Shown: positions 10,636-33,148 of the stretch, piece by piece
Layout: every line of letters starts with the position of its first letter
Position numbering within the stretch: position 1 is the first letter of the stretch
Program-made: the position numbers and the translations under genes
NCBI GenBank assembly: GCA_964569385.1
Contig: CAZMUM010000046.1
Span: 1-33,167 of the forward strand
DNA: 33,167 nt
Direction of reading: 5' to 3'
Source of the DNA: an uncultured Acidimicrobiales bacterium
GTDB taxonomy: Bacteria; Actinomycetota; Acidimicrobiia; Acidimicrobiales; Poriferisodalaceae
The notes under the pieces: model-generated
What the model was told of the DNA's origin: nothing
The model's input: only the letters and a program-made list of their open reading frames with translations
The model's database searches: none

Positions 10636-12039
10636 CTAAAGCGTCTCGAAGTAGCGGTTGATTTCCCACGCGTTCGGCGCGTCGGAGGCACCGTCGCCTC
10701 CGCCAGTGTTAAAGGCCAACCACTCGAAACGGCGCATACCAGTCCAGTACCGAATGAGATCCGCGCCGAGCATGTCGTTCAACAGAGAATCGGCCTCAAG
10801 CGCCTTGGCGGCGGCAACAACCGAAGCCGGGAGCCTGGCGGGCGAATCTACGGTATCGGGAAGACCCCAGGCCATGAACTCGAACTTTGCTGGCGGCTCG
10901 AGTTCGCCTTCAATCCCGGCAAGTCCACCAGCCAACACGACCGCAGCCGCTAGGTACGGATTGAGGTCGCCTGCACCCACTCGGTGTTCTATTCGGGCCG
11001 ACGACACCGACTTGTTGAGAACCCGGATAGCGCTCGACTTGTTGTCGATGTCCCAGGTTGCGTGTGTAGGCACTGCCTTGAAGGGAACAACCCGTCTGAA
11101 GCTATTTGGGTTGGGCGCCATAAATGAGGTCGAGCCTGGGAGAGTCGCCATCAGCCCAGCAAGCCACTGTCGAGCGATCAACGACAGCTGATCCGGGCCG
11201 GTGGGGTCGTACATGACTGGGCCGTCGGCATTGAGTAGAGAGTGGTGGACGTGGAGCCCATTGCCGTAGTCCTCACTGAGCTTGGCCATGAACGTGACCG
11301 ACAAGCCTCGTTCGTGAGCAACTTCCTTGCACACTTGACGGGCTCGGATCACGTGGTCAGACGCGCTGAGTGGGTCATCTGGCGAGACGTTGAGCTCGAA
11401 CTGGCCGGCCGCAGCCTCGGCGTTCCAGGCTTCCCATGGAACTTCAAGACGGTCGAGTCGGCGACAGATCTCGGTCATTATGGGGTCGAGCCTGTGGTGG
11501 TCCTGAGATAGGTAGGCCACATGTGAGTCGACTCCGAAGGGAACCATGTCGGTCCAACCGCTGGCTCGGTTCTCGGCAAATGACCGCTCGAAGAAGTGCC
11601 CCTCGATCTCAAAGGCAAACTTGCTGGTTAGGCCGTGGCTGGCAAGTCGTTCGGTAAGGTGTTTAATGAGCCCGCGCCCACAGATCGGGATACGGACTTT
11701 GTCGACGTCCAAGGCATCGGCAAAGCACGTTGCCAATCCATCAGCCGCAGGGTCGACGCGTAGCGTTGCAAGATCTGGCAGTAGGTAGATATCGCCAACA
11801 ACACGCGACCGCCAGTCGGCGCTGAACCCGAAGCCAGGTTCGCCAGAGCGGTCGGTCCCGAAGACGAAGTCAGCGACAGCTATCCCGCCGTCGAGTGCCG
11901 ACAAGAACTTCCGCGGATGCAGAACCTTGCCTATCGGCAAGGCGTCTGGCTGAATACCGTCCACACGCACACGGGTGATTGAGTTCGCTTCAAGAAAGGC
12001 CGGAACATCAGCAGCGGTCAAGGTTGTCGGCGGTGCCAC
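10636..12039 (-). CDS. Glutamine synthetase family protein (type I GS-like; candidate gamma-glutamyl-amine ligase of the PuuA/GlnA3 type)
   Basis: GS motifs FMAKLSEDYGNGLHVHHSLL, NSFRRVVPF…WDIDNKSSAIRV, and C-terminal NPYLAAAVVLAGGLAGIE. The finder ORF extends to 12327, but the extra 95 aa are low-complexity and overlap the upstream gene. The start is taken as GTG 12037-12039, overlapping the upstream stop (TAGTG). Confidence 0.8.
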   Translation of the reverse strand: MAPPTTLTAADVPAFLEANSITRVRVDGIQPDALPIGKVLHPRKFLSALDGGIAVADFVFGTDRSGEPGFGFSADWRSRVVGDIYLLPDLATLRVDPAADGLATCFADALDVDKVRIPICGRGLIKHLTERLASHGLTSKFAFEIEGHFFERSFAENRASGWTDMVPFGVDSHVAYLSQDHHRLDPIMTEICRRLDRLEVPWEAWNAEAAAGQFELNVSPDDPLSASDHVIRARQVCKEVAHERGLSVTFMAKLSEDYGNGLHVHHSLLNADGPVMYDPTGPDQLSLIARQWLAGLMATLPGSTSFMAPNPNSFRRVVPFKAVPTHATWDIDNKSSAIRVLNKSVSSARIEHRVGAGDLNPYLAAAVVLAGGLAGIEGELEPPAKFEFMAWGLPDTVDSPARLPASVVAAAKALEADSLLNDMLGADLIRYWTGMRRFEWLAFNTGGGDGASDAPNAWEINRYFETL

Positions 12040-12656
12040 TACAGCTCCCCAAACAGATTGTCGATGCCGTATCCGGTGAGTATCGAAAGGTCGCGTAGGT
12101 CGCCGATGAGCGACACATCCTCGCGAAGTACGGCCTCGACCAGTAGTGAAGAACCGGCCATCGAAGACGCAAGGTCGTCCGAAGCCCCGTAGATATCGAT
12201 CGCAGGCTGACCGTCGCCCCCGTACTGGTCGTGAGTGCCATCGTCGGTTGCGTTGACGCGAATCGGCTTGGGACAGTCGGGCCGCTTCAGCGCAGCTTCC
12301 ATGAACCGTTTGGTTTCGACGCGCCACGGGCCGATCGGCGGTTCGAGCAGTTTCCCGACAGTTAGAGCGAGAGCCGGATGCCTGGCCGCGCCTTCAAGTT
12401 TGGGTTTAACCGAGCTGTCGTTCAGGTCGGCGGTGATCACCACTGCAGCGTTCGCCGCCACCCCACGTTCGACCTCGATGCGGTCGCCAAGCAGACGAAT
12501 CGTTACAGCCTGCGGGTCGGTCGCCGATTTGAGCACGGCAACACCTTTCACGCGCGCAGTCCGGCTTGCGACTCCAGCTAGAGCGAGCGAACGTCGGAAC
12601 AGCGCCGCGACCACCTTCACTATCGGCAATGCATCAGCTTCGGTCGTAACCAACAT
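12039..12656 (-). CDS. Hypothetical protein, first gene of the GS-like/PuuD-like operon (possibly a lipid-binding SCP2-like N-terminal fold, weak)
   Basis: 205-aa ORF whose stop overlaps the GS-like start. No recognisable catalytic motif. Codon usage is consistent with neighbouring genes. Confidence 0.45.
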   Translation of the reverse strand: MLVTTEADALPIVKVVAALFRRSLALAGVASRTARVKGVAVLKSATDPQAVTIRLLGDRIEVERGVAANAAVVITADLNDSSVKPKLEGAARHPALALTVGKLLEPPIGPWRVETKRFMEAALKRPDCPKPIRVNATDDGTHDQYGGDGQPAIDIYGASDDLASSMAGSSLLVEAVLREDVSLIGDLRDLSILTGYGIDNLFGEL

Positions 12657-13000: not shown

Positions 13001-13006
13001 AAGCAA
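12710..13006 (-). pseudogene. Truncated paralogous copy (C-terminal ~97 codons only) of the hypothetical gene at 14293-14832
   Basis: Translation LFHKPNPWSPRSSPGELLDAVPIEEISLQWAD…FFADGRFLPKYTVLG…DEADAILASLGDQAVEVEVPD is ~75% identical to residues 83-179 of the 14293-14832 product. DNA similarity starts abruptly at ~13000, about 30 nt from the MFS stop, with an in-frame TAG immediately upstream of the TTG. Confidence 0.6.
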
Positions 13007-13031
13007 CTACAAGATTGTTCATAGGCGGGTC

Positions 13032-14216
13032 TCAGGGCACATCGAGTGCTCGAGTGGCCAGGACAGCAAGGCCAACTCCAACCAAAGCGGCTGCACCCAA
13101 CACAAACAGGGTTTCGGCGCCGAGACCCGAGATCAACAGAGAGGCTGTTAGCGGCCCTGCGGTCTGACCGGCTCGCATCACAGAAGTGAACACCGACACC
13201 ACCGCGGCTCGGGAGTCCGTATCGGCGGCGCTGCTGACGACTTCTTGCAGCGTGGGGATCAGCATCCCTTCGGCAAACCCATAGACGAGAGAACCCACAA
13301 CAACGACGATCACCGCATCGGCAGTGCCAACAATGGCATAGGCACCCCCAAGAACAATGGCACCAAACCCGACTACGCGACGTGCCCCAAGCCGGGCCCG
13401 GGTACGCGACAACAGAAGCGCGGCAATTGTCGACGACAAGGCCGGGACACCGATAACGAGGCCACGGCTCCGCGCTTCCAAGCCGAAATTGTCTTCGAGC
13501 ATGATGGGAAAGACGGTCAAGAACAGACCGAAGATCATCACGAACACTACGAACGCCATGCCGATTGCAACCTTGACCGATGGCTTAGCGATGACGGTCG
13601 ACGCTTTGGAAATCTGCTGCCGAACCGTCGAGTCCGATGTTGTCGAGTGGCCAGCAAGTTTCCTTGCGACAAGCACCGCAGTCACGAACCCGACCGGAAA
13701 GAGGGCAAAGGACCACCGCCAAGTACCGAAACCGGCCAGCAGACCGCCAAGGGGCGGAAAACCAGCTACGCCAACGGTCAGAACAGCCGAGTTCCACGAG
13801 ATGTAGCGAATCCGGTCCGGGCCTTCCCAGTTATCGGCGATGAGGCTTACAGCCAATCCAATCAAGCTGGCCCCACCTATCCCCTGGAGCGCTCGGGCCG
13901 CGATGAGCGACCACCACGACGGCGCGAACATCGCCAGGGTTCCGCCCAGCGCAAAGGTGGCTAGTGCGGGAACGAGCACCAGTCGTCGCCCATGGCGGTC
14001 GGCCAACACTCCGAACAACGGGGCCAACAAAATGGCTGGTGCCGGACCGGCTGCCACGAATACCCCTGCGTCGCTGTCAGGCCGACCGAAGTGGTCGAGG
14101 ATGTCCGGTATTGAAGGTCCGACCATGGTGTTAGCCATCACTCCAGTGCCGGTGATAGCAAAGATCAGCCACAAGAGTGGACGACGAGTGCTGACTGAAT
14201 CGAGATCGGCTGACAT
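13032..14216 (-). CDS. MFS transporter
   Basis: 394 aa with about 12 hydrophobic segments. MFS-type loop motif GVLADRHGRR between TM2 and TM3. Confidence 0.85.
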   Translation of the reverse strand: MSADLDSVSTRRPLLWLIFAITGTGVMANTMVGPSIPDILDHFGRPDSDAGVFVAAGPAPAILLAPLFGVLADRHGRRLVLVPALATFALGGTLAMFAPSWWSLIAARALQGIGGASLIGLAVSLIADNWEGPDRIRYISWNSAVLTVGVAGFPPLGGLLAGFGTWRWSFALFPVGFVTAVLVARKLAGHSTTSDSTVRQQISKASTVIAKPSVKVAIGMAFVVFVMIFGLFLTVFPIMLEDNFGLEARSRGLVIGVPALSSTIAALLLSRTRARLGARRVVGFGAIVLGGAYAIVGTADAVIVVVVGSLVYGFAEGMLIPTLQEVVSSAADTDSRAAVVSVFTSVMRAGQTAGPLTASLLISGLGAETLFVLGAAALVGVGLAVLATRALDVP

Positions 14217-16719: not shown

Positions 16720-19128
16720 ATGCCAACCATGACATCGGTCAAAGACCCAAGGCCACGACCCACGCGGCAGCCATCCGATGTCTCGCTGTGTGTCGTGTCC
16801 GACAACACAATGCAAGCCTTCGCAACAGCGCTGCGCGACGCCGACCGAGCCGCTATCGACACCGAAACGGTTTACATCGAACCAGGCCCCGGCGCATTGC
16901 GGGTGGTCTCGGCTGCAACTCGGGCCCCCGACGGGACCGAGCAGGCCTGGGTTGTTGATGTCACTCTTGTCGACCGCCTCGATCTCGCCAAGGCTCTTTC
17001 GGGGGTGAAAGCCGATGCCTGGAACGCCGACTTCGACGCCAGGGTCATCGAACGCGACCTCATCGAACCAGCGCGGCTGGCCGGACTCGACGTCGAGCCA
17101 GTCGTGTGGTGGGACGCTCAGCTCGCCGACGCTCTCCTGCACCAGGGCGTTACTGGGTTCGGGTTTTATCACGGGCTCGCCTGGGCCGCTGAGTGGTACT
17201 TAGGTATCCGGGCCGAGGGTAAAGGCACCACCCAACTGTCCTACACCGAGAGCGATCCACTAACCGAAGAACAACTTCGCTACGCCGGCGCCGATGCGAT
17301 CGAGACGCTGTGGGTAGCCGATGTCATCTCGACTCAGATCGACGAATTGGGACTCAATCGGGTGTGCACGCTCGAGCAACTGGCCAGGCCGTTTCTCGAC
17401 CAGATGGAACGGGCCGGTCTGCCATTCGACTGGGATGGCTGGCACGATCAACTTCACGAGATCGAAAAGCTCCGGGTGGCCACACTCACCCGCCTGGCCG
17501 AACTAACTGGGGGCGGACAGGGCTCGCTGTTTTCGGCCGAGCTCGAACCCTCGTGGAACCCAGGCAGCGAGAGCCAAACAAAACAGATGCTCAACGAGTT
17601 CTCACTCGACGAGGTTCTACGCTGGACTGAGGCCTACATGGGCGATCGCCGACCGCTCGAACCCATCGATCCGCTGCGGGCCGACACTCTGGCCGAAATT
17701 GGCGGCGAGCTGTGCACCACCCTGCTCGAGTACCGCGAGCACACCAAGATTCTCACGACATACGGCGAGAACCTCCAAGACCATGTCGGCGACGACGGCC
17801 GAATCCACCCCGAGTACCTTCAGGTAGTGGGTACCAACACCGGCCGCCTGGCCTCACGTAACCCCAACGCCCAGAACCTCTCTCCACGCATGAAGCCGCA
17901 CTTCAAACCAGCCGACGACGAGAAGGTATTCGTCTATTCCGACCTCAGCCAGGCCGAGCTTCGGTTCGTGGCCCAACTATCGGGCGATGAGGCTCTGTGT
18001 CAGGCCTTTGCCGACGGAGTGGACGTACACGCGGCAACCGCAGAGCGCATGTTTGGCATCGACATGACCGCACTTGGCAATGACGACCCTAAGAGTTACG
18101 AGGAGTACCGGGCCAAGTCGAAGCGAATCAACTTCGGCATCGTCTACGGACAACGCGGTGGCGGTCTGGCGCGCAGCCTCTCGCAGTCGGGTGTTCCTAC
18201 TACTCCAGACGAAGGACGCAACCTGCTTGAGGCCTACCTGGCTGCCTACCCAGGCGTGGCCCAATGGTGCGACGATCGCGACCGCATTATCGACCGACTT
18301 GCGACCGATCCTGGCCCGATGGACTGGATTGCAACACTGCGGCTCCATCAACTCCTCCCGACCATCACCGCCAGTCGCCGGGCGTTTCGGGCCGAGAATC
18401 GTCGGTGGCCTTCGGTCGAGGAGGTTCAAGAACAGTTCGATCACTTAACTCTCGACGAGGTTGCTTGGGCGATGTCTTTCCACGCCCCAGTAGCGCTTCG
18501 AGCCGATGGCAAACCCTTCGCGTTCGATAGCTTCACGAAAGCTGGTCGCCGCCAAAGGTTCACTATCCACACCGAGGGGATCCTGGCTAGGGGCGCGGCA
18601 ACCATCATCGCCTCGCACAAACCGAGTCCGGCCCAAATTCGAGTGCGTCTCAACGACAGATTCAACGTCAAGCTGGGTGCCACTCCACCAGACTCCTCCG
18701 ATTCTGGCATTACGAAAATGCTCGAAGATCGTGCTCTGCGGCGGGCCGTGATCGATGAGGTCGCCGATCTGATGGGTGCCGATGCTCTAAGCCGTCTACT
18801 TGATACCTCGCTCCGAGAACGGGTCGCCCGTATGGCCAACGCCTACCGGAATGCGCCGGTGCAGGGCGGAGTCGCCGACGTCATGCTCGACGCATACGGG
18901 CTTCTGCACACACGACTGGCCCAGTTCCCCGACGCTGTTGGCGTTCAGACTGTTCACGACAGCGTGGTTGTCGAGTGCTCTAGAGCCACCGCTAAGGAAG
19001 TCGCAATCGTGGTCAAGGGTGCCCTCGAAGACGCCATGCGAGCCTGGTGTCCCGACGTTGCGGCTGTTGCTGACACCGATGTGAGGTCGTCACTATCGGA
19101 CAGTGACGTCGAGTTCAGCCTTCCATAG
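16720..19128 (+). CDS. Family-A (PolA-like) DNA polymerase with an N-terminal 3'-5' proofreading exonuclease domain and no 5'-nuclease domain. It carries a large insertion between motifs B and C.
   Basis: Exo motifs: AIDTET (Exo I), WNADFDARV (Exo II), YAGADAIETLWV (Exo III). Polymerase motif A is VYSDLSQAELRFVAQLSGDE and motif B is YRAKSKRINFGIVYG. Then YPGVAQWCDD, then ~170 extra residues before MANAYRNAPVQGGVADVM. Motif C is VHDSVVVE (HDS in place of the usual HDE). Confidence 0.85.
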   Translation: MPTMTSVKDPRPRPTRQPSDVSLCVVSDNTMQAFATALRDADRAAIDTETVYIEPGPGALRVVSAATRAPDGTEQAWVVDVTLVDRLDLAKALSGVKADAWNADFDARVIERDLIEPARLAGLDVEPVVWWDAQLADALLHQGVTGFGFYHGLAWAAEWYLGIRAEGKGTTQLSYTESDPLTEEQLRYAGADAIETLWVADVISTQIDELGLNRVCTLEQLARPFLDQMERAGLPFDWDGWHDQLHEIEKLRVATLTRLAELTGGGQGSLFSAELEPSWNPGSESQTKQMLNEFSLDEVLRWTEAYMGDRRPLEPIDPLRADTLAEIGGELCTTLLEYREHTKILTTYGENLQDHVGDDGRIHPEYLQVVGTNTGRLASRNPNAQNLSPRMKPHFKPADDEKVFVYSDLSQAELRFVAQLSGDEALCQAFADGVDVHAATAERMFGIDMTALGNDDPKSYEEYRAKSKRINFGIVYGQRGGGLARSLSQSGVPTTPDEGRNLLEAYLAAYPGVAQWCDDRDRIIDRLATDPGPMDWIATLRLHQLLPTITASRRAFRAENRRWPSVEEVQEQFDHLTLDEVAWAMSFHAPVALRADGKPFAFDSFTKAGRRQRFTIHTEGILARGAATIIASHKPSPAQIRVRLNDRFNVKLGATPPDSSDSGITKMLEDRALRRAVIDEVADLMGADALSRLLDTSLRERVARMANAYRNAPVQGGVADVMLDAYGLLHTRLAQFPDAVGVQTVHDSVVVECSRATAKEVAIVVKGALEDAMRAWCPDVAAVADTDVRSSLSDSDVEFSLP

Positions 19129-22262: not shown

Positions 22263-22932
22263 TTACTTGGCAGTCCATCCTCCGTCGACGGCGACAGTTT
22301 CGCCGGTGATGTAGGTGCTCGCCGAGCTAGCCAACAACAGGAGAACACCATCGAGTTCGCCCTCGTTTCCAGGCCGTCGCATCAGTGCACCTCGTTCGAT
22401 GTAGCGCTGTCCGCCTGCGGCCATCTCGCCCACAAACAGATCGCTGGTTAGTTCGGTCTCGAAATATCCGGGTGCAATCGCGTTTACCCGGATTCGGTGC
22501 CGAGCCCACTGCGCTGCCAAGTCCCTCGTGAGGCCGGTGAGGCCAGCCTTAGACGCAACATAGGCCGCTTGATGTATTGATGGCGAACAGGGCAGGGTCC
22601 TCCTCTTCGGCCTTTACCGGCGAATCCGACGTGCCGGCGTTGTTCACCAAGATATCGACCTTCCCGAACTGGTCGATCGACTCGGCGACAAGTCGACGTA
22701 GCTCTTCGTCGTCGGTCACGTCGCAGCGAATTGGCAACGAGTTCGGCAGCCTGGCTGCCAGCTCTGTTAGGCGATCCTCGCGCCGTGCCGCCAGCACAAC
22801 GTTGGCGCCAGCGTTACTTAGTACCTCAGAAAATCGCACCCCGAAACCGCTAGATGCTCCTGTAACGATGGCGACCTGACCCGTCAGGTCGAACAGGGTT
22901 GAGCTGTTGGGTGGTTTAACAACGTTGGGCAT
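22263..22932 (-). pseudogene. Short-chain dehydrogenase/reductase (SDR) gene carrying a frameshift and an internal deletion
   Basis: ORF 22549-22932 has TGASSGFG (the cofactor site) and NNAG. ORF 22263-22520 continues in another frame from …AYVASKAGLTGLTRDLAAQWARHRIRVNAIAPGYFETE (YxxxK and the PG motif). Only ~30 codons separate NNAG from the catalytic Tyr, against ~55-60 in intact SDRs. The two frames overlap between 22552 and 22613. Confidence 0.6.
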
Positions 22933-24557: not shown

Positions 24558-27500
24558 TCAGTCGGATCCGATTACAGGAATCGCAGCATTGCCCATGGCG
24601 TCGGCGATTCGGTCGAGAGCGTCGACCACCCCAGCCGCAGGGTCGGCGACCTTGGTCGACCAACGTTTGGTTATGGCACTCCACCGCTTCAACTCGTCTT
24701 CGGCCAGTGTGCCCCGTAAAAAACCCAAAGCCAGAAGGTTCTGCTCGGCGCGATCGGTAAGAGTTTGGGCCTCAGATTGATAGTGATCCTCGACTAGCTG
24801 GTCGAGTTCGTCGTCGGTCATCGCCGGCACCACACTCGAGGCAATACGGGCCATGTTGCGGTAGGAGCCCTGAAGGAGAAATGGCGGTGCATCACGGTCG
24901 GTTTCGGCCGTGGCCGCCGATCGAACGTAGGCATCGTTTACGGCCATGACAGTGTCTTGAGCCCGATCTAGAAGGCCGATCAGTCGAACGGTTTCGGACA
25001 GTTGTGGGCCGTCCCAACGGTGTTCAAGGCCGTCGGTACTAGCGGGCCTGGTGCCTTTGGCCATGCCGAGCACTGCTTCGATGTCGTCGATCAACCGGCC
25101 AGCCGAACCAGCCAGAGCCGGGCAAGCGGTCAGGCTGTTCTCCAGATACGAAAGCGCAAAGTCTTGATCGTGTTCGTCGGCGACATCACCGAGATTGTGT
25201 ACGTCGGCGCGGTTGACCAACATGTCGGGGAGATCGAACCTGCTTCCACCAGACGAATACGGGTTACCGGCCATCACCACGGCAAGACGTTTGCCGCGGA
25301 GGTCGAAGGTAATGGCATCGCCGTCGGCTACGCCTTCGATTCGGCGAGTTGCATCGGCGAGTGGAATGAATCGAGACAAGAACTCCGCAGAGGTGAACTG
25401 CACGTCGTCGATGAACAACATGACGTTGCGACCGAACCGAAGAGCGAGATTGACCTTCTCGACCTCGGCCCGCGCGGCCGCGTTTGGCGCCGCGGCGGGA
25501 TCGAGCGATGTGGTGTCGGTTCCGAGAGCAGGACCATTGACCTTCACCATCAGCATGCCAAGCCGGTCGGCCAGCCAGGCCATGAGCGTTGTCTTGCCAT
25601 ACCCAGGCGGAGATGTCAGTACAAGAAGTCCGCTTCGGCTCAGGTCGGTGGCATCGACGGTGCCGATCTGGCGCGAGAGGTTGGCCCCAACCAACGGCAA
25701 CAGGGCGCGGTCGATGAGCCGATTCCGAACGAACCCAGCCATCACCTGAGGCCGGTGCGAGTCGAGGTCAACCTCGACACTGGCCTGGCTAACAACGGCG
25801 CGCCTTGCCGCCTGATATTGCGGCCACCGAGTCTGCATATCCTCGAACAAGCCGCCGACCCGCTGCGCCATCTCGTCGAATCGGAGGCGCATCTCGCCAC
25901 CGTCGATGCGACGATGTTCACTGACCAAACCGTCGACGTTGAACGCGCCGGCATGGGGTACTTCGCGCTGTCCAACATCGGGAGCCGCCAGCAACGCGGC
26001 CGCCTCGGCAACATCGAACTCAAACTCGGCCAGATTGGAGTCGTTGGCTACGACACCACCGACCCAGTCTTGGGCGGTGGCGAACCTCGAAACAACGTCA
26101 GGTGTCGAGCTAAGAGCCGAGTTCAACTCCTCGAACCCTTCCTTGCCAAGAACATCTTTGATACGAACCAGCAGCTCGGTAGCAGTGGACGGGACAGCGA
26201 GATCGAGCCCACGTACACCAAGATCGTCAGCCAGGTAGCCGGTTACGCCACGACGAGCCCGCGCGTCGAGGTGCGCCAGGACGCCAGCCAAATGTTGGTC
26301 GATCTCGGAGCGGACCCTCTTGATCCCATCAGCGACTCCGACTCGGTCGCGTGCCGATCTAGCCGCGCGAGCCCGTGTGGCGTGAGCAACAACTGCGGCC
26401 GAGTCGATCGATGCCACAAATATACGGCCGAGTGCGCGACTCATCCCCGCGTGTCCGAGGACCGGTTCGTCATTGCCCTGAGCGGTTAACGCGGCCAGAA
26501 GCCTGGTCGCGTCGTGGTCGTGTACGCCAACTTCGTAACCTTCACCGTGTCTGCGCTCGGTAACCGCCCGCACCAGGGCCGCCAGCTTTTCTGGTACCGC
26601 CGCAGCGGTGGACAGTTCGACCCGGCGGTCACCGTCGCCGCGGAGAACAGCCCAAGCTAAGTACTCGGCTCGGCTGACATCGTCGGTCTCTGACGGATAG
26701 GGCCGCGACATTAGATCTGCGAAGTCGCTCAGCTCGGCCGACACGTCCTGGCGATAGTCAGTACCGGTAACAGTCACGTCGACGCCACCCGAAGTCGGTG
26801 ACAGCACAATTTCGAATGGTTGTTCGTTGGGCGCGAAATTGAACCCTCCAAACGCGAGCGAGCCGTCTTCGGCTACAAGATCGGTTCGGTCACGAACCCG
26901 CCGCCGAGCTTCTTCGGCCGCCGCGTTCAACTCTGTACGGACTTCCGACGCTTGACCGACCTCGCCCAACTCTTGTAGTTCGTCGGCCAGGCTCCGCACC
27001 CTCGCCACCATCTGGTCGGCAGCAAAGAAACTGGCGATCTCGGCTTCGTCGGCCGCCTCTCCAGCGCGCTTGACCACGGTTCCAAGCAGACGACGCGCCG
27101 CCTCAACCAGCCGTTGGGTACGGCGGGCTCGCTGGTCGACCAACTCAGAGCGGCGCGCCCCGAACGTCTCGTTCAGGCGGTCTCGAAGTTCGACCATTCG
27201 ATCGATTCGGTCGGGTTCTTCGCCGTAGCGACTGTCGATCCGTTCGAGGTTTACGAGCAAACGCCCTAGCTCGGCATCGCATTCGTCTGGGTTCGTAGTG
27301 CCGACTACCGCAGCAGACATCGACTGCTCCAGCAGCGCGACCTCGGCGTCGAAGGCTTCGTCTGACTCCGAGGACCGCAACTCGCGTACACGGCCGTCGA
27401 GCTGGGCTCTCGCTCGGTTGGTACTAGCAGTGATGTCGGCGATGCGGCGAACAATTCGCGTCCGTGCGGTTGGGTCTCCGGCATCTAGGGCCGACACTGC

Positions 27501-29441
27501 ATCCACCACCGCCTCTAGGTCGCCGGTTACCGCCAGAACCTGTTCCATGATGTGGTTCACATCGAGCGCTGTGGCGCCCGCCAAACCCTCGACTACTAAC
27601 GACTCAAGACGTGTCTCGAAATCGGCGAAGGCCCGATCGTCGTCGAGAACCTCAGCGGCTCTTTCGGCCAGCCCGCTGATGGCATCGTCGAGATCAGAAG
27701 TCAGTTGAGCAACAGCTGTGTCGTCGATCTCGGGCACATCGTTGAGTAGCGACGCTTGTCCTCTGGCCCGACGAAGTAGCCCAAGAGCCTCGACCACATC
27801 GGTGGCCGAGGAGGCCCGGCTGGCCTCGTCGACTGTCCGGCGCGAGTCGCGTTCGGCAGCTTCGAGACGGGCTGCGGCTTCAGCTCGCAGCCGCCGAACT
27901 TTGGCGTACTCGTCGACCAACAGGCCGGCCGTGCTCACGATGTCGCGCAAGCCGCCGCGTAGATCTTCGGCCTCGGGGTCGGCCATCCACAAGTGGGTAT
28001 CCAGTGCGCGCCTCGCGGCAACGATTATGGCTTCCCAAGTGCGCTCGGAGGGGTCGACATCGTCGGCCAGCTGGCCTACGTCGTAGGCGTCTCCCAATCC
28101 AGCTACAAGATCAGCGTTGCCAACTCGATCAACCCAAGTGTCGCCGGTCGAGGTCTCGCTGTCGGCGAACTCGGCATCGACAAACGGTGTGTCCCACCAT
28201 TGGATGGGGTGAACGCGTGACAGCTCGGCATCGTCGGGACCACCTCTGAACAGCATCATTTGGCCGTCGGCAAACATTGCGAATCCGTGGCATGGGATGA
28301 GCTGTGAGATCTCGCGTCGCACCAGGTTGTATGGAGCTAATAAGTACTCGCCACTGTCGCGGTGATGAAAGACGTAGAGCAGGTCTTCACCGTTTGGTGC
28401 CGCGACAACTTCTTCGAACACCATTCCGTCGCTCGAAACGTCGAACAATCGCGTCCCGGTGGTAGCCAGGTGATATCCACCGGGGAAAACCACACCATCA
28501 CCACCAGGCAGAACGCGCGCCGCATCACCGAGAGCGTCGACCCTGGTTCCGCTGCGGGTACGACGACCGAATAAGTAAAAGCGAGGTGGCTCGGAATAGA
28601 GCTCGACGCTGATAGCCAGCTCTTCTCCGAACTCGGCGTAGGAAACCCCGACGTCGGCCAACGACTGACCAGGTACCTCGACCGGTTCGTCGGTTTCGAC
28701 TCGTCCGCCCGGCGTGCCATCTTCGATGCGTAACTGAAGACGACCGCCGCGGAACCCGACGAACACTTCGTCAAGCACCGACACTGTCGGGTGGGTGCCG
28801 GGACGCTGATCTTCGCGGGTGCTTCGCACCCAAGTCATGTCGTGAGAATCTGGCCACGTGTAGTCGCGGTCGCCTCTGGCATCGACGAACGATACTGTCC
28901 CGTCGATCGCTACGGTCCAGCGAAGAACTACAAGGTCATCGACTCGTTCGCCGATCCGGAATGCCGCTAGCAGTTGGTTAGCACCGCGACGCAGGTCGGA
29001 GAATCGGGCTTTGCCATAAAAGCGGTGGAGTTTGTCGAACTCTTCGCGGAATGCCGGCTCGGCTAGGAAATTCCGCTCATCGTCGGCACCAATCGGAGCA
29101 AGCTCGTCATCGGCGCCACGTTCGTACAACCCAAAGACATGTTCGGGCGTCAGCTGAGCCAGCTCTGGAGAGACCCGATAGCCGAGCATCAGCAGGTCGC
29201 CGACACGAACTACGTCTCGAGGCCTGCACGCGAGGTCCGTGCGAAGCCTGTCTGATCCGGCCAGCCGCAACTGCGTGCTGCCAAACGATTCGGTTCGTAG
29301 ACGGTCGAGCGATGTCGCGGCCTCAACCGTGTCGCGGACGCGGCCGCGCAATCGGCGCCTCAGCAGGTCGTAGTTGCCACCTGCTGGGCTGCCGGTGTCA
29401 GCGCTCGTCTGACCCGCGGAGGCGTCGCCGGTATCGGTCAT
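24558..29441 (-). CDS. Giant (1627 aa) protein with one AAA+ ATPase module near the C-terminus and ~1250 aa of unassigned N-terminal sequence. Last gene of the NfeD-flotillin operon.
   Basis: Walker A LVLTSPPGYGKTTLMAWL (~25585-25614). Walker B NVMLFIDDVQ. Sensor-1-like VVMAGNPYS. Sensor-2/Arg-like LLQGSYRNMARIA. The start sits 9 nt after the flotillin stop. From memory only, the overall look matches large proteins annotated as 'ATPase involved in DNA repair' (DUF3686+AAA). This is unverified. Confidence 0.8.
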   Translation of the reverse strand: MTDTGDASAGQTSADTGSPAGGNYDLLRRRLRGRVRDTVEAATSLDRLRTESFGSTQLRLAGSDRLRTDLACRPRDVVRVGDLLMLGYRVSPELAQLTPEHVFGLYERGADDELAPIGADDERNFLAEPAFREEFDKLHRFYGKARFSDLRRGANQLLAAFRIGERVDDLVVLRWTVAIDGTVSFVDARGDRDYTWPDSHDMTWVRSTREDQRPGTHPTVSVLDEVFVGFRGGRLQLRIEDGTPGGRVETDEPVEVPGQSLADVGVSYAEFGEELAISVELYSEPPRFYLFGRRTRSGTRVDALGDAARVLPGGDGVVFPGGYHLATTGTRLFDVSSDGMVFEEVVAAPNGEDLLYVFHHRDSGEYLLAPYNLVRREISQLIPCHGFAMFADGQMMLFRGGPDDAELSRVHPIQWWDTPFVDAEFADSETSTGDTWVDRVGNADLVAGLGDAYDVGQLADDVDPSERTWEAIIVAARRALDTHLWMADPEAEDLRGGLRDIVSTAGLLVDEYAKVRRLRAEAAARLEAAERDSRRTVDEASRASSATDVVEALGLLRRARGQASLLNDVPEIDDTAVAQLTSDLDDAISGLAERAAEVLDDDRAFADFETRLESLVVEGLAGATALDVNHIMEQVLAVTGDLEAVVDAVSALDAGDPTARTRIVRRIADITASTNRARAQLDGRVRELRSSESDEAFDAEVALLEQSMSAAVVGTTNPDECDAELGRLLVNLERIDSRYGEEPDRIDRMVELRDRLNETFGARRSELVDQRARRTQRLVEAARRLLGTVVKRAGEAADEAEIASFFAADQMVARVRSLADELQELGEVGQASEVRTELNAAAEEARRRVRDRTDLVAEDGSLAFGGFNFAPNEQPFEIVLSPTSGGVDVTVTGTDYRQDVSAELSDFADLMSRPYPSETDDVSRAEYLAWAVLRGDGDRRVELSTAAAVPEKLAALVRAVTERRHGEGYEVGVHDHDATRLLAALTAQGNDEPVLGHAGMSRALGRIFVASIDSAAVVAHATRARAARSARDRVGVADGIKRVRSEIDQHLAGVLAHLDARARRGVTGYLADDLGVRGLDLAVPSTATELLVRIKDVLGKEGFEELNSALSSTPDVVSRFATAQDWVGGVVANDSNLAEFEFDVAEAAALLAAPDVGQREVPHAGAFNVDGLVSEHRRIDGGEMRLRFDEMAQRVGGLFEDMQTRWPQYQAARRAVVSQASVEVDLDSHRPQVMAGFVRNRLIDRALLPLVGANLSRQIGTVDATDLSRSGLLVLTSPPGYGKTTLMAWLADRLGMLMVKVNGPALGTDTTSLDPAAAPNAAARAEVEKVNLALRFGRNVMLFIDDVQFTSAEFLSRFIPLADATRRIEGVADGDAITFDLRGKRLAVVMAGNPYSSGGSRFDLPDMLVNRADVHNLGDVADEHDQDFALSYLENSLTACPALAGSAGRLIDDIEAVLGMAKGTRPASTDGLEHRWDGPQLSETVRLIGLLDRAQDTVMAVNDAYVRSAATAETDRDAPPFLLQGSYRNMARIASSVVPAMTDDELDQLVEDHYQSEAQTLTDRAEQNLLALGFLRGTLAEDELKRWSAITKRWSTKVADPAAGVVDALDRIADAMGNAAIPVIGSD

Positions 29442-29449
29442 TGATTGGC

Positions 29450-31471
29450 TCAGCGATCGTCGCCGTCGAGAAGTTCACCAACGGGTCGGTCACTTAAACC
29501 ACCAGCCTCGATGGCTTCTCGCAGCGTGGCAACCAGATCGTTTCCACCAGATCCGAGCCGACCGCCGATTCTCGACACGAGGTCGGCAATGGTCAGATCG
29601 CGGATACCGGCTGCCCCGATTCCGCCAAGGCCATCAGCGACATCGGAGATAATGTTCGAGTCGCCTTCGAGGTATGGCTGAAGCATCCGACGGCCAGCGT
29701 CGCTGCTACCGACAAATCCATCGATGGCTTGGCCGTGGCCCGCAGCCGACAAGATGCGCTCGACAATGCCCTCGTCGGAAACGATTGTCATGTCGGCGTT
29801 CGACAACGACTCACCCAAGGCCGCGGCAGCCGACTTGGCTACGTCGGCCTTGGCGCCGATGGCGGCAAGCTCAACTTCTCGGTTTACGTCGAGCCGCAGG
29901 CGGAACTCCTCGTGGTCTTGCCCGGCGGCAGTCATAGCGCCGACACCTTCGGACTTGGCCTTCAGACCTTCGCCTTCGCCTTCGAGCCGGGCCTTGGTGG
30001 CATCGCCCTCGGCCATTCCTACCTCGCGCAACGCCTCGGCATCAGCCTTTTTGACCTCGACCTCGGCAAGACCGGTGGCTCGAATGGCATCAGCACGTTC
30101 ACGCTCGACCTGAACTTCGGCGAGGCCCTCGGCCGCCGATACAGCCTGGGTGCCTTCGGCACGGCGTTTCGATGCCTGCATTTCTTGGCTGGCAGCATCG
30201 GCTTCGGCGCGGGCAAGGGTAGTGAGCCGTTCGGCCTCAGATCCTGCGGCCTGTTTGTCCGCATCGGCTTCTTTGACTCTGGCTATAAAGGCAGCCTCGG
30301 CTAGGCCCTCGGCCGTCTTAACCTCCGAGGTTGCCTGGCGCTGAGCCTCTTCGACGACACGTAGCGTGGCTATCTCTTCTTCTTTCTCAGCCACTCCCAG
30401 ATCTGCTTCGACCCGGCCCCGAGTCAGCTCGGCGAGAGCACGTTCGCTAGTTTCTTTCTCCTTAGCCGCCTCGGCCACAGCGGTTTCACGCCCGACCTCG
30501 GCTAGAGCTCGATCGCGCTCAATCTCTTCTGTTTGCACGGCAATGACTCGCTGCCTGTTGGCGTCTGCCAGTGCGATCTCGCGATCCTTGTTCTGGTCGG
30601 CAACCCCGATCCCTTCTTCGGCAGCTATCCGGGCTTCCTCGGCGATACGGACTGCCTCGGCTTCGACCTGTTTGGCTTCGGCATCGGATCTGGCTTGAAC
30701 GGTCCGGATCTCCTGTTGCTGACGAGCCAGGGCTTCGGCCCGGTCGCGGTCCATCTCGAAGACGGCTTTGTCGGCATCGGTGGTGCGGCGAGTCGTTTCT
30801 TCGCGCTCGCGCTCTTGGGCGTCGTTGGTGCGAATGTGCTGTTCGACGGTGCGCTCGGTGATCTTACGAATGCCGTCGGCATCGAGGATGTTGGTCGGGT
30901 CGAGCTCTTCGATCGCTGTCTGTTCGAGGTAGTCGATAGCGACATCTTCAAGCACGTACCCGTTTAGGTCTTGGCCGATGATGCCAATGATCACATCCTT
31001 GAATTGTTGGCGTGATGTGTAGAGATCCTCGAAGTCGAATTCCTTGCCTGCCGATTTGAGAGCCTCGGAGAACTTGGCCGCAAACAACTCGCGAAGGGTG
31101 TTGAGGTCGGAGGCTCGAACAGTGCCGACCTGCTGGGCCACACGAATGACGGCTTCTTCGGTTTTGTCGACCTTGACGTAGAAGTCGACGGATATGTCGG
31201 CACGAACGTTGTCCTTGCAGACCAGGCCATCCTTGCCTCGGCGGTCGACCTGAATGTTCTTCACCGAGATGTCCATTACCTCGGCTTTATGGATGACCGG
31301 GATTACCACCTGACCGGTGAAGGTGACGACAACTTCTTTCCACTTCGAGACAACTAGCGCTTGGCCTTGAGGCACCTTGCGGAACAGCCGCGTCACTAAT
31401 AGACCAAACCCGATTGCCACGACCGCGACGATGACGATCACGACACCCACCGCTGTTAGAAGTCCGCTCAT
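29450..31471 (-). CDS. Flotillin / SPFH (band-7) family protein, YqiK/FloT-like, with a long E/A/R-rich coiled-coil region
   Basis: N-terminal TM helix, then an SPFH domain (VVSKWKEVVVTFTGQVVIPVIHKAEVMDISVKNIQVD…VRADISVDFYVKV…). About 250 aa of EA-rich coiled coil follow, then a flotillin C-terminal region. 673 aa. Confidence 0.9.
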   Translation of the reverse strand: MSGLLTAVGVVIVIVAVVAIGFGLLVTRLFRKVPQGQALVVSKWKEVVVTFTGQVVIPVIHKAEVMDISVKNIQVDRRGKDGLVCKDNVRADISVDFYVKVDKTEEAVIRVAQQVGTVRASDLNTLRELFAAKFSEALKSAGKEFDFEDLYTSRQQFKDVIIGIIGQDLNGYVLEDVAIDYLEQTAIEELDPTNILDADGIRKITERTVEQHIRTNDAQEREREETTRRTTDADKAVFEMDRDRAEALARQQQEIRTVQARSDAEAKQVEAEAVRIAEEARIAAEEGIGVADQNKDREIALADANRQRVIAVQTEEIERDRALAEVGRETAVAEAAKEKETSERALAELTRGRVEADLGVAEKEEEIATLRVVEEAQRQATSEVKTAEGLAEAAFIARVKEADADKQAAGSEAERLTTLARAEADAASQEMQASKRRAEGTQAVSAAEGLAEVQVERERADAIRATGLAEVEVKKADAEALREVGMAEGDATKARLEGEGEGLKAKSEGVGAMTAAGQDHEEFRLRLDVNREVELAAIGAKADVAKSAAAALGESLSNADMTIVSDEGIVERILSAAGHGQAIDGFVGSSDAGRRMLQPYLEGDSNIISDVADGLGGIGAAGIRDLTIADLVSRIGGRLGSGGNDLVATLREAIEAGGLSDRPVGELLDGDDR

Positions 31472-31473
31472 TG

Positions 31474-32094
31474 TCAGTTGTCTCCCTTATTGCCGAACAG
31501 TTGGTCATCATTCGTCACGCCGTAAGTGGCAGAGTCGGAATTCCATGACATAAGTCGAATTGTGTCGCCTGGGCCAAGCCCAAGTGCGTTGCCGTCGCGC
31601 ACGTCGATGCGCGACATCGAGCCGTCGTCCCAGATGGCGTCGGCGTAGCCAAAGCCTGCATCTACCCGACCTGAGCGCACCGTGGCCTCTCGGCCAACTA
31701 ACTCCATCGCACTAGGGGCGGTTGCAGTCTCCATTAGGCGCCCGAGAGGTCGGGCCAGCCTTGAGCCGAGAAACAATGCAGTAGCAAGGGCCATCACGAA
31801 CACAGCCGCCGATGCGGCCACAAGGGTCATCCCGCCAAGCGGGTCGAGAAAGAACAGCGCCGCCACCACGGCCAGGAACCAAGCAATTAGCGAGACGATC
31901 GAGAACACAACCAATGGCGGAACTCCACCAAGGCCAAGCGACGCCACTGCGTCCTCGCCGAAGCCGTCGCCTATGTCGCCGCCAATATCGAGGATGCCGA
32001 TCATCGAAACCAGCCACAGAACCAGGCTGACCCCAAGTGGTATGAAGAAGATGATCGCGACTGGAGTGGTCGCCGCATCCCAGAATTCAGCCAT
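31474..32094 (-). CDS. NfeD-like (YqiJ/YuaF-type) membrane protein, first gene of the flotillin operon
   Basis: Three or four N-terminal TM helices. C-terminal soluble beta-rich (OB-like) segment GREATVRSGRVDAGFGYADAIWDDGSMSRIDVRDGNALGLGPGDTIRLMS. It lies directly upstream of the flotillin gene, and its stop is 3 nt from the flotillin start. Confidence 0.75.
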   Translation of the reverse strand: MAEFWDAATTPVAIIFFIPLGVSLVLWLVSMIGILDIGGDIGDGFGEDAVASLGLGGVPPLVVFSIVSLIAWFLAVVAALFFLDPLGGMTLVAASAAVFVMALATALFLGSRLARPLGRLMETATAPSAMELVGREATVRSGRVDAGFGYADAIWDDGSMSRIDVRDGNALGLGPGDTIRLMSWNSDSATYGVTNDDQLFGNKGDN

Positions 32095-32221: not shown

Positions 32222-33148
32222 TTGCTTGTAACCGCCTCGATGGGCACAAGGCCCCACTCGGTACTACTTTTAGCGTTCCCGCTGATCGAGCACTCGCACT
32301 GCGGCAGATCGCCCAAAATATATCCGGCAGATCGGTCGAATCAAGACAGCTGCTTGTGCGATCTCTCGACCCCGGGTGTCCGCAGAGCGGCAATCGAGGA
32401 CCCAGATGGGATCCTCGCAGCCACTTCCGGCCGCGTGCTGATCGATGAGTGGCAGGAAGCTCCGGAGATTCTCGGCGCTGTCAAGCGTGCCGTCGACGCC
32501 GACCTCTCGAGCACCCCTGGTCGATTCATCGTGACAGGTTCGGTCCGTGCTGCACAACAAGCTGCTACCTGGCCGGGAACCGGCCGACTCATCAGAGTTC
32601 AGATGTCGGGCTTGACCCAAAGCGAACTCGAAGACAACAACACCTACAACCCCATCGACACCCTCTTCGCCGATGAAGCGCCGACGTTCGGCCATTCTGG
32701 CCTCAGCCGCCACGGCTACCTTGCCAGGGTCGTCGCTGGAAGATTTCCCGATGTCATCGGCAGATCAGATCGAAGTCGTTCCCGCTGGTTCGACGGATAC
32801 GTCGAACAGCTCGTCGACCGCGACGCAGCACAGATCGCCACGACCAACCCTCACCCACGAAAGCTCCGCTCTGTGCTGTCATCATGCGTCGCCCGCACCG
32901 GACAAGAACTAAACAAAGAAGCAACCGCCAGAGACGCCGACGTAGCCAAGGGAACAGCCGACACCTACATCACCCTGCTCGAAGACCTCTCCATCATCCA
33001 GCGAGTCCCCGCCTGGCACAACAAACGCCTCCACCGACTCAACCGATCACCCAAGATCCACATCGCAGACCCCGGCCTCGCCGCACACCTGCTCAACGTC
33101 GACGTCACAGCCCTCGGGTCTGCACGGTATATGGTTGATGGTGTGTGA
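32222..33148 (+). pseudogene. Degraded AAA+ ATPase of the DUF4143 family. The N-terminal P-loop region is frameshifted or deleted.
   Basis: The C-terminal part (…RVLIDEWQEAPEIL…FIVTGS…YGYLARVVAGRFP…DGYVEQLVDRD…) matches the 'ATPase + DUF4143' family from the Walker B region (LIDEWQ) onward. The expected upstream LLRQIA segment is in another frame (ORF 32170-32448: …ALALRQIAQNISGRSVESRQLLVRSLDPG). No intact GxxGxGKT is present. Confidence 0.55.

Follow-up and report, generated by a model that had tools for sequence, protein, structure and literature searches.

The 33,167-nucleotide stretch of DNA analysed here (the window) encodes a giant AAA+ ATPase directly downstream of a flotillin gene. 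The ATPase gene is the third of three tightly packed genes that form an operon in the order YqiJ-like three-TM protein, YqiK-type flotillin and ATPase:

31474..32094, minus strand: gene 1, a YqiJ-like membrane protein of 206 aa, recognised by a profile match to YqiJ
29450..31471, minus strand: gene 2, a YqiK-type flotillin of 673 aa, 28% identical to E. coli YqiK
24558..29441, minus strand: gene 3, the giant AAA+ ATPase of 1627 aa, from ATG to stop

The 1627-aa protein is a full-length member of the uncharacterised DUF3686 / 'DNA repair ATPase' family. The open reading frame described in the initial annotation is real, and every sequence feature listed there is present. The N-terminal 1250 aa, which had been called unannotatable, contain two Pfam domains, both of unknown function: DUF3686 (PF12458; aa 40-483, E=1e-131, 440 bits against a cut-off of 25), which is matched over profile positions 4-447 of 448, and DUF7902 (PF25472; aa 604-687 in a helical region, E=3e-16, 60 bits against a cut-off of 26). 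The DUF3686 match bears out the association with the DUF3686+AAA family ('ATPase involved in DNA repair') suggested in the initial annotation, and NCBI likewise lists homologs under the product name 'DNA repair ATPase'. Many Ala, Arg and Asp residues and an acidic pI of 4.7 characterise the protein, which is predicted to be soluble and has no hydrophobic segment (maximum Kyte-Doolittle average over 19 residues, 1.36); Kyte-Doolittle and Pfam analyses detected neither a TM segment nor a protease or peptidase domain. More than 120 full-length homologs (1600-1950 aa) are collinear with it at 33-73% identity and 96-100% query coverage, which goes well past what chance would give, and relatives are found in at least 588 species genomes from Actinomycetota, Myxococcota, Pseudomonadota, Bacteroidota, Deinococcota and Acidobacteriota. 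The distribution across phyla is patchy, and some members are located on megaplasmids. DUF3686-containing proteins form 531 clusters at 50% identity, with the domain placed N-terminally; the longest of them (~1590-2036 aa) are presumably complete, and many shorter entries are fragment-like. A full-length match to a well-characterised enzyme family, which would have pointed away from flotillin, was found in none of NCBIfam, PADLOC and the PDB: the NCBIfam search gave nothing meaningful, and PDB searches with the whole protein and with family profiles returned only P-loop-level matches (Rpt3, RuvB, p97, NVL and Rix7), which did not identify a clade.

The identity of the two upstream genes was established by several comparisons. 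The flotillin aligns with E. coli YqiK at 28% identity over 473 aa (E=1e-34) and has a TM segment at its N-terminus, followed by an SPFH domain, a long coiled coil rich in Glu and Ala, and ~200 aa of C-terminal tail. It has no Pfam Band_7 match even at E<=1; PF01145 is present in homologs ~70% identical to it, whose database names are flotillin, YqiK or SPFH. The 206-aa protein encoded by gene 1 has about three TM helices followed by a C-terminal beta (OB-like) domain and is of the YqiJ/YuaF (NfeD2, DUF1449) type. Because it has no Pfam match itself and no significant BLASTP match to YqiJ, and a Pfam scan of ten orthologs gave one weak YqiJ_N match only, its relationship to YqiJ had to be established by profile comparison, in which a profile of 17 orthologs matched E. 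coli YqiJ with a probability of 82% (hhalign; E=1e-5, 128 columns). In addition, the first gene of 31 loci matches an ortholog in Hymenobacter that is annotated as 'DUF1449 family protein'. Only short gaps separate the three genes: 2 nt between the stop codon of gene 1 and the flotillin ATG, which has an AAGGGAG Shine-Dalgarno sequence in front of it, and 8 nt between the flotillin stop codon and the ATG of the ATPase. Promoter and terminator scans gave background-level signals. Elsewhere in the window, a PolA-like gene is located ~5 kb from the ATPase gene and is absent as a conserved neighbour in other loci, STAND-type NTPases are encoded nearby, and an AAA_14/DUF4143 gene adjoins.

The linkage between the ATPase and flotillin, which the initial annotation had implied, is strictly conserved. 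Among the 80 best genome loci, a flotillin homolog is located directly upstream on the same strand in all 72 that have enough upstream sequence, and the same holds for four of four distant members, giving 76/76 informative loci from at least five phyla. The annotated loci of plasmid pQBR103, Deinococcus and Hymenobacter also have flotillin upstream of the ATPase. In 58 of 71 loci, flotillin is preceded by a YqiJ-like homolog. When the ORFs of the 80 loci were clustered all against all, with noise from shadow ORFs in high-GC DNA, no fourth widely conserved neighbour emerged; what appeared besides was a PucR-type regulator, found in Streptomyces only, and unrelated ABC transporters. TelA lies downstream in one distant locus. 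As operon linkage, this shows that the three proteins are functionally connected, but does not point to which component would be the substrate.

A further gene, encoding PspA/IM30, is located immediately upstream of the three genes in Hymenobacter (Bacteroidota), on pQBR103 and in three gammaproteobacterial genome loci, and a PspA fragment is located upstream in a fourth gammaproteobacterial locus. Most loci have no PspA beside the three genes; an HMM built from five operon-linked PspA sequences detected none in the window or beside the three genes in Actinomycetota and Myxococcota loci. An operon comprising CesT/Tir, PspA, YqiJ/YuaF, Band-7/flotillin and a 'Betapropeller+Coiled-coil+AAA-ATPase' has been described by Ravi et al. 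2024 (mSystems, PMC11237479), together with 'abbreviated operons' without PspA. The window contains the same set of three genes in the same order and, having no PspA match, represents an abbreviated form without the CesT/Tir and PspA genes. That description is based on comparative genomics only and does not name DUF3686; what is new here is the 76/76 flotillin linkage, the MoxR/dynein/midasin class assignment, the invariant catalytic residues and an additional middle-domain motif. No experimental work on this operon type was found in the literature. In B. subtilis, PspA is reported to be tethered to the membrane through an SPFH protein (PMC8581546).

The domain organization of the ATPase was examined with AF2 models (pLDDT 90.3 and 93.4), which divide the protein as follows:

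27993..29324, minus strand: DUF3686 domain, aa 40-483, divergent and beta-propeller-like, with ~27 strands within aa 59-417
26862..27992, minus strand: helical arm, aa 484-860, with helices of up to ~58 residues
27381-27632, minus strand: DUF7902, aa 604-687, within the helical arm (Pfam)
25752..26861, minus strand: middle region, aa 861-1230 (AF2 pLDDT 93.4, pTM 0.86)
26508-26546, minus strand: EGYxxG[VI]HDxDA loop, aa 966-978, in an all-helical domain, invariant at 25-36% overall identity
24561..25751, minus strand: AAA+ module, lid and C-terminal helices, aa 1231-1627, with a modelled structure resembling the MoxR/dynein/midasin class

A long N-terminal helix (aa 23-53) precedes the propeller-like strands, and Foldseek supports the propeller assignment of the DUF3686 model. 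The beta-rich segment proposed earlier for aa ~250-450 is thus present, but that span was too narrow, the strands extending over aa 59-417. An invariant SPNGED motif (aa 348-353) lies inside this domain. The long, acidic, Ala/Arg-rich helical regions noted earlier correspond to long helices at aa 442-855. The middle region, which has no Pfam or PDB match, opens with a small beta domain (aa 862-900); an all-helical domain and a small beta sheet follow, and a long helix then connects to the AAA+ module. The GVHDHDA sequence in this region was considered as an HD-phosphohydrolase motif, and this reading was dropped, since it has a single invariant His and no match to an HD domain was obtained.

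In the AAA+ module, the following elements were located:

25587..25613, minus strand: Walker A SPPGYGKTT, aa 1277-1285, invariant in all homologs
25398..25424, minus strand: strand beta3 and Walker B VMLFIDDVQ, aa 1340-1348, with D1345, D1346 and Q1348 invariant
25185..25343, minus strand: pre-sensor-1 hairpin, beta4, alpha4 and beta5, including NRADVHNLGD (AF2 secondary structure; model residues +860)
24858..24872, minus strand: QGSYR, aa 1524-1528, invariant, at the start of the lid helix in the model

The initial annotation had reported a single P-loop, a Walker B of the hhhhDD type and a conserved-looking stretch after it. Indeed, the 1627 aa contain exactly one P-loop, the Walker A motif listed above; Walker B ends in Asp-Asp, not Asp-Glu; and the stretch LAVVMAGNPYSSGGSRFDLPDMLVNRADVHNLGD (aa 1386-1419) is almost entirely invariant across homologs, with N1393, P1394, P1405-L1408, N1410, R1411 and D1413 fully so. 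The NRADVHNLGD segment, which had been singled out as unusual, turned out to be the arginine finger of an ordinary AAA+ box VII, running on into beta5, with the sensor-1 N1393 upstream. In the AF2 model, a hairpin (aa 1367-1380) precedes beta4, N1393 ends beta4, R1411 ends helix alpha4, and beta5 spans aa 1413-1416; the beta2-alpha2 interval is occupied by a conserved 18-residue loop (aa 1303-1320), not by a clear hairpin. R1411 is accordingly placed in the model as an arginine-finger candidate, and R1528 of QGSYR may be the sensor-2 arginine. The catalytic set K1283/T1284, D1345/D1346, N1393, R1411 and R1528 is invariant and is unchanged even in members from Deinococcota, Bacteroidota and Pseudomonadota with 25-36% overall identity. 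The Walker B form DD[V/I]Q is that of E. coli DnaA (LLIDDIQF in the alignment), and with DD in place of DE, hydrolysis may, as in DnaA, proceed slowly or have a regulatory role. Comparison of the AAA+ profile with single E. coli sequences gave probabilities of 12% for RavA and 28% for DnaA (hhalign), which are useful only for this Walker B comparison. The AAA_5 match is weak (20.0 bits, under the Pfam gathering cut-off of 22). In the models, the AAA+ core and lid resemble MoxR-class members (CbbQ, NorQ and RavA) and the dynein and midasin modules, which places the module in the MoxR/dynein/midasin class by structure. Unlike in those proteins, ~1230 residues of unrelated domains stand N-terminal to it. 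With a normal NRADVHNLGD segment and a DnaA-type Walker B, the module is ordinary in anatomy, though divergent by sequence.

The strict flotillin linkage makes the remodelling of membrane scaffolds the most likely role of the ATPase, rather than DNA repair. We propose, with a probability of roughly 0.55, that it belongs, as the ATPase subunit, to a conserved membrane module encoded by the three genes and uses ATP to remodel membrane assemblies of flotillin and possibly of PspA. With its catalytic residues intact and its gene never found without a flotillin gene in the 76 informative loci, it is an obvious candidate for the energy-consuming part of flotillin/PspA assembly turnover. The AAA+ modules would assemble as a ring, which we infer from the invariance of R1411, the putative trans-acting arginine finger. 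The propeller and the helical arm may bind the flotillin assembly on the cytoplasmic side, with the family-specific C-terminal tail of flotillin as a possible docking site. The energy of ATP hydrolysis would then go into building up, taking apart or otherwise reshaping the flotillin scaffold, its client proteins or PspA polymers associated with it, and the purpose of this activity may be membrane maintenance or the handling of envelope stress. Several observations weigh against the proposal: sequence similarity to known AAA+ proteins is confined to the P-loop region, with AAA_5 under its threshold; Walker B has DD; the VWA partner usual for MoxR-class ATPases is missing; and PspA does not adjoin the three genes in the window or in Actinomycetota and Myxococcota loci.

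Four other explanations were weighed against this proposal. By analogy with CbbQ, which acts with Rubisco, NorQ, which acts with nitric-oxide reductase, and RavA, which acts with its own partners, the ATPase could be a MoxR-type assembly chaperone, with the flotillin microdomain as a platform on which a specific client membrane complex would be matured or inserted. We regard this as unlikely. MoxR-class ATPases usually have a VWA partner, but the conserved neighbours include none and the window has no VWA gene; with only three genes conserved, there is no conserved client gene either. Furthermore, the AAA_5 match falls below the Pfam cut-off, and Walker B is DD whereas that of RavA is DE.

A membrane-acting anti-phage or conflict system, in which flotillin and the YqiJ-like protein would sense perturbation of the envelope and the ATPase would be the effector or switch, appears very unlikely. 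The patchy spread across phyla, sometimes on megaplasmids, would suit such a system, as would the STAND-type NTPases and the adjoining AAA_14/DUF4143 gene in the window and a UvrD-like helicase and a DNA methyltransferase upstream on pQBR103. However, the neighbours are mostly housekeeping genes and depend on the lineage, the domain searches turned up no effector such as a nuclease or toxin, and no relatives were detected among 2.9 million viral contigs. PADLOC gave nothing meaningful, only a DruC match (E=0.009) in the coiled-coil region, and the recurrent partner, PspA, is an envelope-stress protein.

The layout of a propeller followed by helices recalls membrane-coat proteins, and in a mechanical or coat-like machine the dynein/midasin-like AAA+ module would be an arm that generates the force for bending or shifting patches of membrane. 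This, too, is highly improbable, since TM-scores to coat proteins are very low (0.07-0.17), the AF2 models have long single helices and bundles, not an alpha-solenoid, and each chain has one AAA+ module, not six. Finally, a role in DNA repair, to which the Pfam description, the NCBI product name and the PolA-like gene of the window would point, is hardly credible, since no DNA-binding, nuclease, helicase or SMC/ABC motif was found, every region past the first 39 residues has a pI of 4.5-5.0, the conserved partners are membrane proteins, the PolA-like gene is not conserved beside the ATPase in other loci, and the weak RuvB matches cover the P-loop only (NCBIfam RuvB, 16.9 bits against a cut-off of 282). 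The name 'DNA repair ATPase' is a historical label without support in these data; it is probably misleading as an annotation and should not serve functional inference.

Streptomyces, Pseudomonas fluorescens plasmid pQBR103, Proteus mirabilis and Vibrio campbellii are tractable hosts carrying the ATPase. The remodelling of flotillin assemblies by a dedicated ATPase can be compared with several known systems. In HflK/C and FtsH, an SPFH cage is paired with an AAA+ machine, and the present module would similarly couple an SPFH scaffold to a ring-forming AAA+ enzyme, a pairing suggested here by operon structure alone. FtsH, a member of the classic AAA clade, differs in being anchored in the membrane and in having a protease domain, whereas the ATPase has neither a TM segment nor a protease domain and is of a different structural class. 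Related two-gene arrangements are the SPFH2-NfeD2 operons yqiJ-yqiK of E. coli and yuaF-floT of B. subtilis (Hinderhofer et al. 2009, PMC2636767), which have a homologous flotillin, a YqiJ-like upstream protein and an identical gene order. In contrast to the window, E. coli has no third ATPase gene, yqiK being followed by sibD/ibsD, and the window flotillin is ~120 aa longer than E. coli YqiK, with a different C-terminal tail.

In the ESCRT system, Vps4 recycles ESCRT-III polymers. The likeness to Vps4/ESCRT-III (Snf7/CdvB) lies in an AAA+ gene linked to the gene for a membrane-remodelling polymer, which here is PspA in several lineages; the ATPase is not homologous to Vps4, as it has no MIT domain and is of a different AAA+ class, and PspA is missing from most loci, including the window. 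A Vps4-like ATPase appears to be absent in bacteria according to one review (PMC7619361). It is tempting, if rather doubtful, to picture the ATPase as dedicated to recycling bacterial membrane scaffolds at the expense of ATP: six propeller-tipped helical arms on a hexameric dynein/MoxR-class ring would grip and disassemble flotillin cages, as well as ESCRT-III-like PspA polymers where PspA/IM30 shares the operon, and the enzyme would be a functional analogue, not a homologue, of Vps4 or NSF.

The window carries a new member of an operon type known from comparative genomics, in which a YqiJ-like protein, a flotillin and a giant AAA+ ATPase are encoded successively. The ATPase gene is the last of the three, and the intergenic gaps are only 2 nt and 8 nt:

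31474..32094, minus strand: gene 1, 206 aa, three transmembrane helices and a C-terminal beta domain
29450..31471, minus strand: gene 2, flotillin homolog of 673 aa with a transmembrane segment, an SPFH-like region and a long Glu/Ala coiled coil
24558..29441, minus strand: gene 3, the giant ATPase, 1627 aa from ATG to stop

The giant-ATPase ORF is real. A protein identical to it is present in public metagenome data, and more than 120 full-length homologs were found (33-73% identity, 96-100% coverage), the closest named relatives being Acidimicrobiia (Ilumatobacter, 54% identity), which makes an uncultured actinobacterium the probable source of the window. A composition scan gave a pI of 4.7 and revealed a protein that is acidic throughout, abundant in Ala, Arg, Asp and Leu, and devoid of hydrophobic segments.

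Gene 1 was linked to YqiJ by a profile of 17 orthologs, which aligned to E. coli YqiJ with an hhalign probability of 82% (E=1e-5), and its Hymenobacter ortholog is annotated as DUF1449, the YqiJ family. Gene 2 shares 28% identity with E. coli YqiK over 473 aa (E=1e-34), and its homologs at ~70% identity, which go by the names flotillin, YqiK or SPFH, contain Band_7 (PF01145). Searches with gene 2 itself gave neither a Pfam Band_7/Flotillin match at E<=1 nor, by sequence, a PDB match at E<=10; this is a detection gap, and its probable cause is sequence divergence together with the compositional bias of the Glu/Ala coiled coil. The region encoding this coiled coil also shows an AT skew excursion of -0.31 (window 30001-31000), and another of +0.32 lies within an MFS transporter gene (13001-14000), both being probably codon-composition effects.

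Two AlphaFold2 models of the giant ATPase, each built from 67-sequence alignments, were confident (aa 1-870, pLDDT 90.3; aa 861-1627, pLDDT 93.4 and pTM 0.86). Together with the Pfam matches, they give the following layout, with all motifs encoded on the minus strand and secondary structure and motif positions from beta4 onwards taken from the models:

aa 23-53: long N-terminal helix (model)
aa 40-483: DUF3686 (Pfam, E=1e-131)
aa 59-417: domain of ~27 beta strands (model)
aa 442-855: very long helices, ~400 residues (model)
aa 604-687: DUF7902 (Pfam, E=3e-16)
aa 861-1230: small beta domain, helical middle domain and long connecting helix (model)
aa 1231-1627: AAA+ core with an enlarged lid (model)
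aa 1277-1285: P-loop SPPGYGKTT, single copy
aa 1340-1348: Walker B VMLFIDDVQ
aa 1367-1380: beta-hairpin before beta4 (model)
aa 1386-1419: stretch LAVVMAGNPYSSGGSRFDLPDMLVNRADVHNLGD
aa 1386-1392: beta4, ending in invariant N1393 at the sensor-1 position
aa 1406-1411: helix alpha4 (DMLVNR), ending in invariant R1411, which immediately precedes beta5 and is at the box VII arginine-finger position
aa 1413-1416: beta5
aa 1524-1528: QGSYR at the start of a lid helix, the sensor-2 position

The initial annotation had tentatively associated the protein with the DUF3686 family, and the Pfam search for this domain bears that out. It had also regarded the N-terminal three quarters as unannotatable; since DUF3686 and DUF7902 both match there, the region is annotatable, though solely as domains of unknown function. 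Within DUF3686, the propeller motif SPNGED is invariant, including in members from Deinococcota, Bacteroidota and Pseudomonadota at 25-36% overall identity. In the all-helical middle domain, the loop EGYxxG[VI]HDxDA (aa 966-978; window 26508-26546) stays invariant even where homologs share only 25% identity; it has no Pfam or PDB match and may bind a metal, a ligand or a partner. Reading this loop as an HD-phosphohydrolase motif was rejected because only one His in it is invariant.

The single P-loop, the double-Asp Walker B and the conserved-looking stretch following it were all present as first described. The Pfam AAA match is marginal (23.6 bits vs a cut-off of 21.2), and AAA_5 stays below its cut-off. 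Sequence-only matches to known AAA+ proteins are confined to the surroundings of the P-loop; therefore, the assignment to the structural class of MoxR, dynein and midasin rests on predicted structure. The motif residues of the module are invariant even in the members at 25-36% identity, with Walker B being an invariant Asp-Asp-x-Gln. E. coli DnaA, which hydrolyses ATP, has the same Walker B motif (LLIDDIQF), whereas RavA has DE instead of DD. The segment NRADVHNLGD, initially considered unusual, proved to be ordinary AAA+ anatomy: the modelled positions of N1393, R1411 and beta5 indicate that this region is what normally links sensor 1, by way of the arginine finger, to beta5, family-specific in sequence and normal in position. 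An invariant arginine that acts in trans would point to an enzyme that is catalytically active and forms rings.

In a genome scan with one genome per species, at least 588 species carried a relative of the giant ATPase, and the matches listed come from Actinomycetota, Myxococcota, Gammaproteobacteria and Acidobacteriota. Of the best 80 loci, 72 have sufficient upstream sequence, and in every one of these the gene directly upstream encodes a flotillin homolog (37-75% identity) and has the same orientation. The YqiJ-like gene was detected in 58/71 loci at E<1e-3 and a small hydrophobic ORF in a similar number, and comparison of loci found no further widely conserved neighbour. The trio recurs at the loci of four distant members (25-29% identity), as well as in annotated loci of pQBR103, of a Deinococcus megaplasmid and of a Hymenobacter plasmid. 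E. coli has yqiJ-yqiK but lacks the ATPase gene, whereas the ATPase never occurred without flotillin in the loci examined; this asymmetry suggests that the giant ATPase serves the flotillin system as an accessory factor. In ~20 Streptomyces loci, a divergent PucR-type gene (GGDEF_2 + HTH_30; 3926-5206, minus strand, in homologous locus L011) lies upstream of the operon and is a candidate lineage-specific regulator.

In several loci from Bacteroidota and Gammaproteobacteria, including Pseudomonas, Pseudoalteromonas and Thiodiazotropha genomes, the three genes are immediately preceded, on their own strand, by a PspA/IM30 gene, often with a gene for YjfI or a Tir-like chaperone beside it. The gene orders and PspA-linked homologous loci are:

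Hymenobacter: Tir-like chaperone, PspA, DUF1449, flotillin, ATPase
pQBR103: YjfI, PspA, rhomboid, DUF2491, DUF350, DUF1190, GspS-like, then the three genes
Marinibactrum: PspA fragment and YjfI homolog upstream
L092, 896-10209; L091, 5438-11312, with L089; L065, 3704-5018; L057, 3627-4313; L069, 4012-4695

An HMM whose sensitivity is limited because it was built from only five sequences found no PspA close to the operon in the window, nor in the loci of actinobacteria and myxobacteria. At a single locus, L083, a distant family member has TelA (PF05816, toxic-anion resistance) directly downstream (11001-12221) and FtsH a few kb upstream.

Other genes in the window were as follows:

3210-6131, minus strand: BTAD + STAND/AAA_16 protein, 973 aa
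6736-9873, plus strand: adenylate/guanylate cyclase + AAA_16 protein, 1045 aa; with the former, two large divergent signalling NTPases ~600 nt apart
16720-19128, plus strand: family-A DNA polymerase, 802 aa, including a 3'-5' exonuclease domain; it lies ~5 kb from the operon, no other DNA-metabolism gene is close by, and the association is not conserved in other loci
22549-22932, minus strand: 127-aa ORF whose match to short-chain dehydrogenase models is limited to their N-terminal half (positions 1-95 of 195); it may be a truncated gene or pseudogene
32222-33148, plus strand: AAA_14 + DUF4143 ATPase, divergent from the operon, not conserved beside it in other loci, its ORF ending ~20 nt short of the window end

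No ATPase partner is mentioned in the classic survey of SPFH operons, and literature searches on DUF3686, PF12458 and flotillin-plus-ATPase returned nothing relevant. Ravi et al. 2024 (PMC11237479) described exactly this gene arrangement, giving the gene order for Dokdonia (Table S3) and reporting that abbreviated operons without PspA are more widely distributed; therefore, the system is already known at the comparative-genomic level. No experimental study of the operon was found in the literature. According to a 2025 review (PMC7619361), bacteria appear to have no Vps4-like ATPase.

We propose, with a probability of roughly 55%, that the giant ATPase is an ATP-driven remodeller or recycler of flotillin assemblies, of PspA assemblies where present, or of their clients. 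The protein would assemble into an AAA+ ring, it would bind the cytoplasmic flotillin assembly through the propeller and the helical arm, possibly docking on the family-specific C-terminal tail of flotillin, and ATP hydrolysis would drive the remodelling or recycling. That it is instead a MoxR-like chaperone for an unspecified client seems unlikely. A defence role for the operon is quite improbable, as there was no meaningful PADLOC match, no relatives were found in viral contigs, and the family occurs on only 13 of 72,556 plasmids, all large replicons; little credence can likewise be given to a coat- or motor-like machine. The name 'DNA repair ATPase' carried by named homologs is unsupported, and true DNA repair is highly improbable because no DNA-related domain was found in the protein.

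If the ATPase does supply the energy with which bacteria turn over their flotillin or PspA scaffolds, the interest of this operon would rise sharply. HflK/C with FtsH and Vps4 with ESCRT-III are established pairings. The former, an SPFH and AAA+ pairing, parallels the proposed partnership of flotillin with the giant ATPase, and the latter parallels the proposed remodelling of flotillin or PspA by it.
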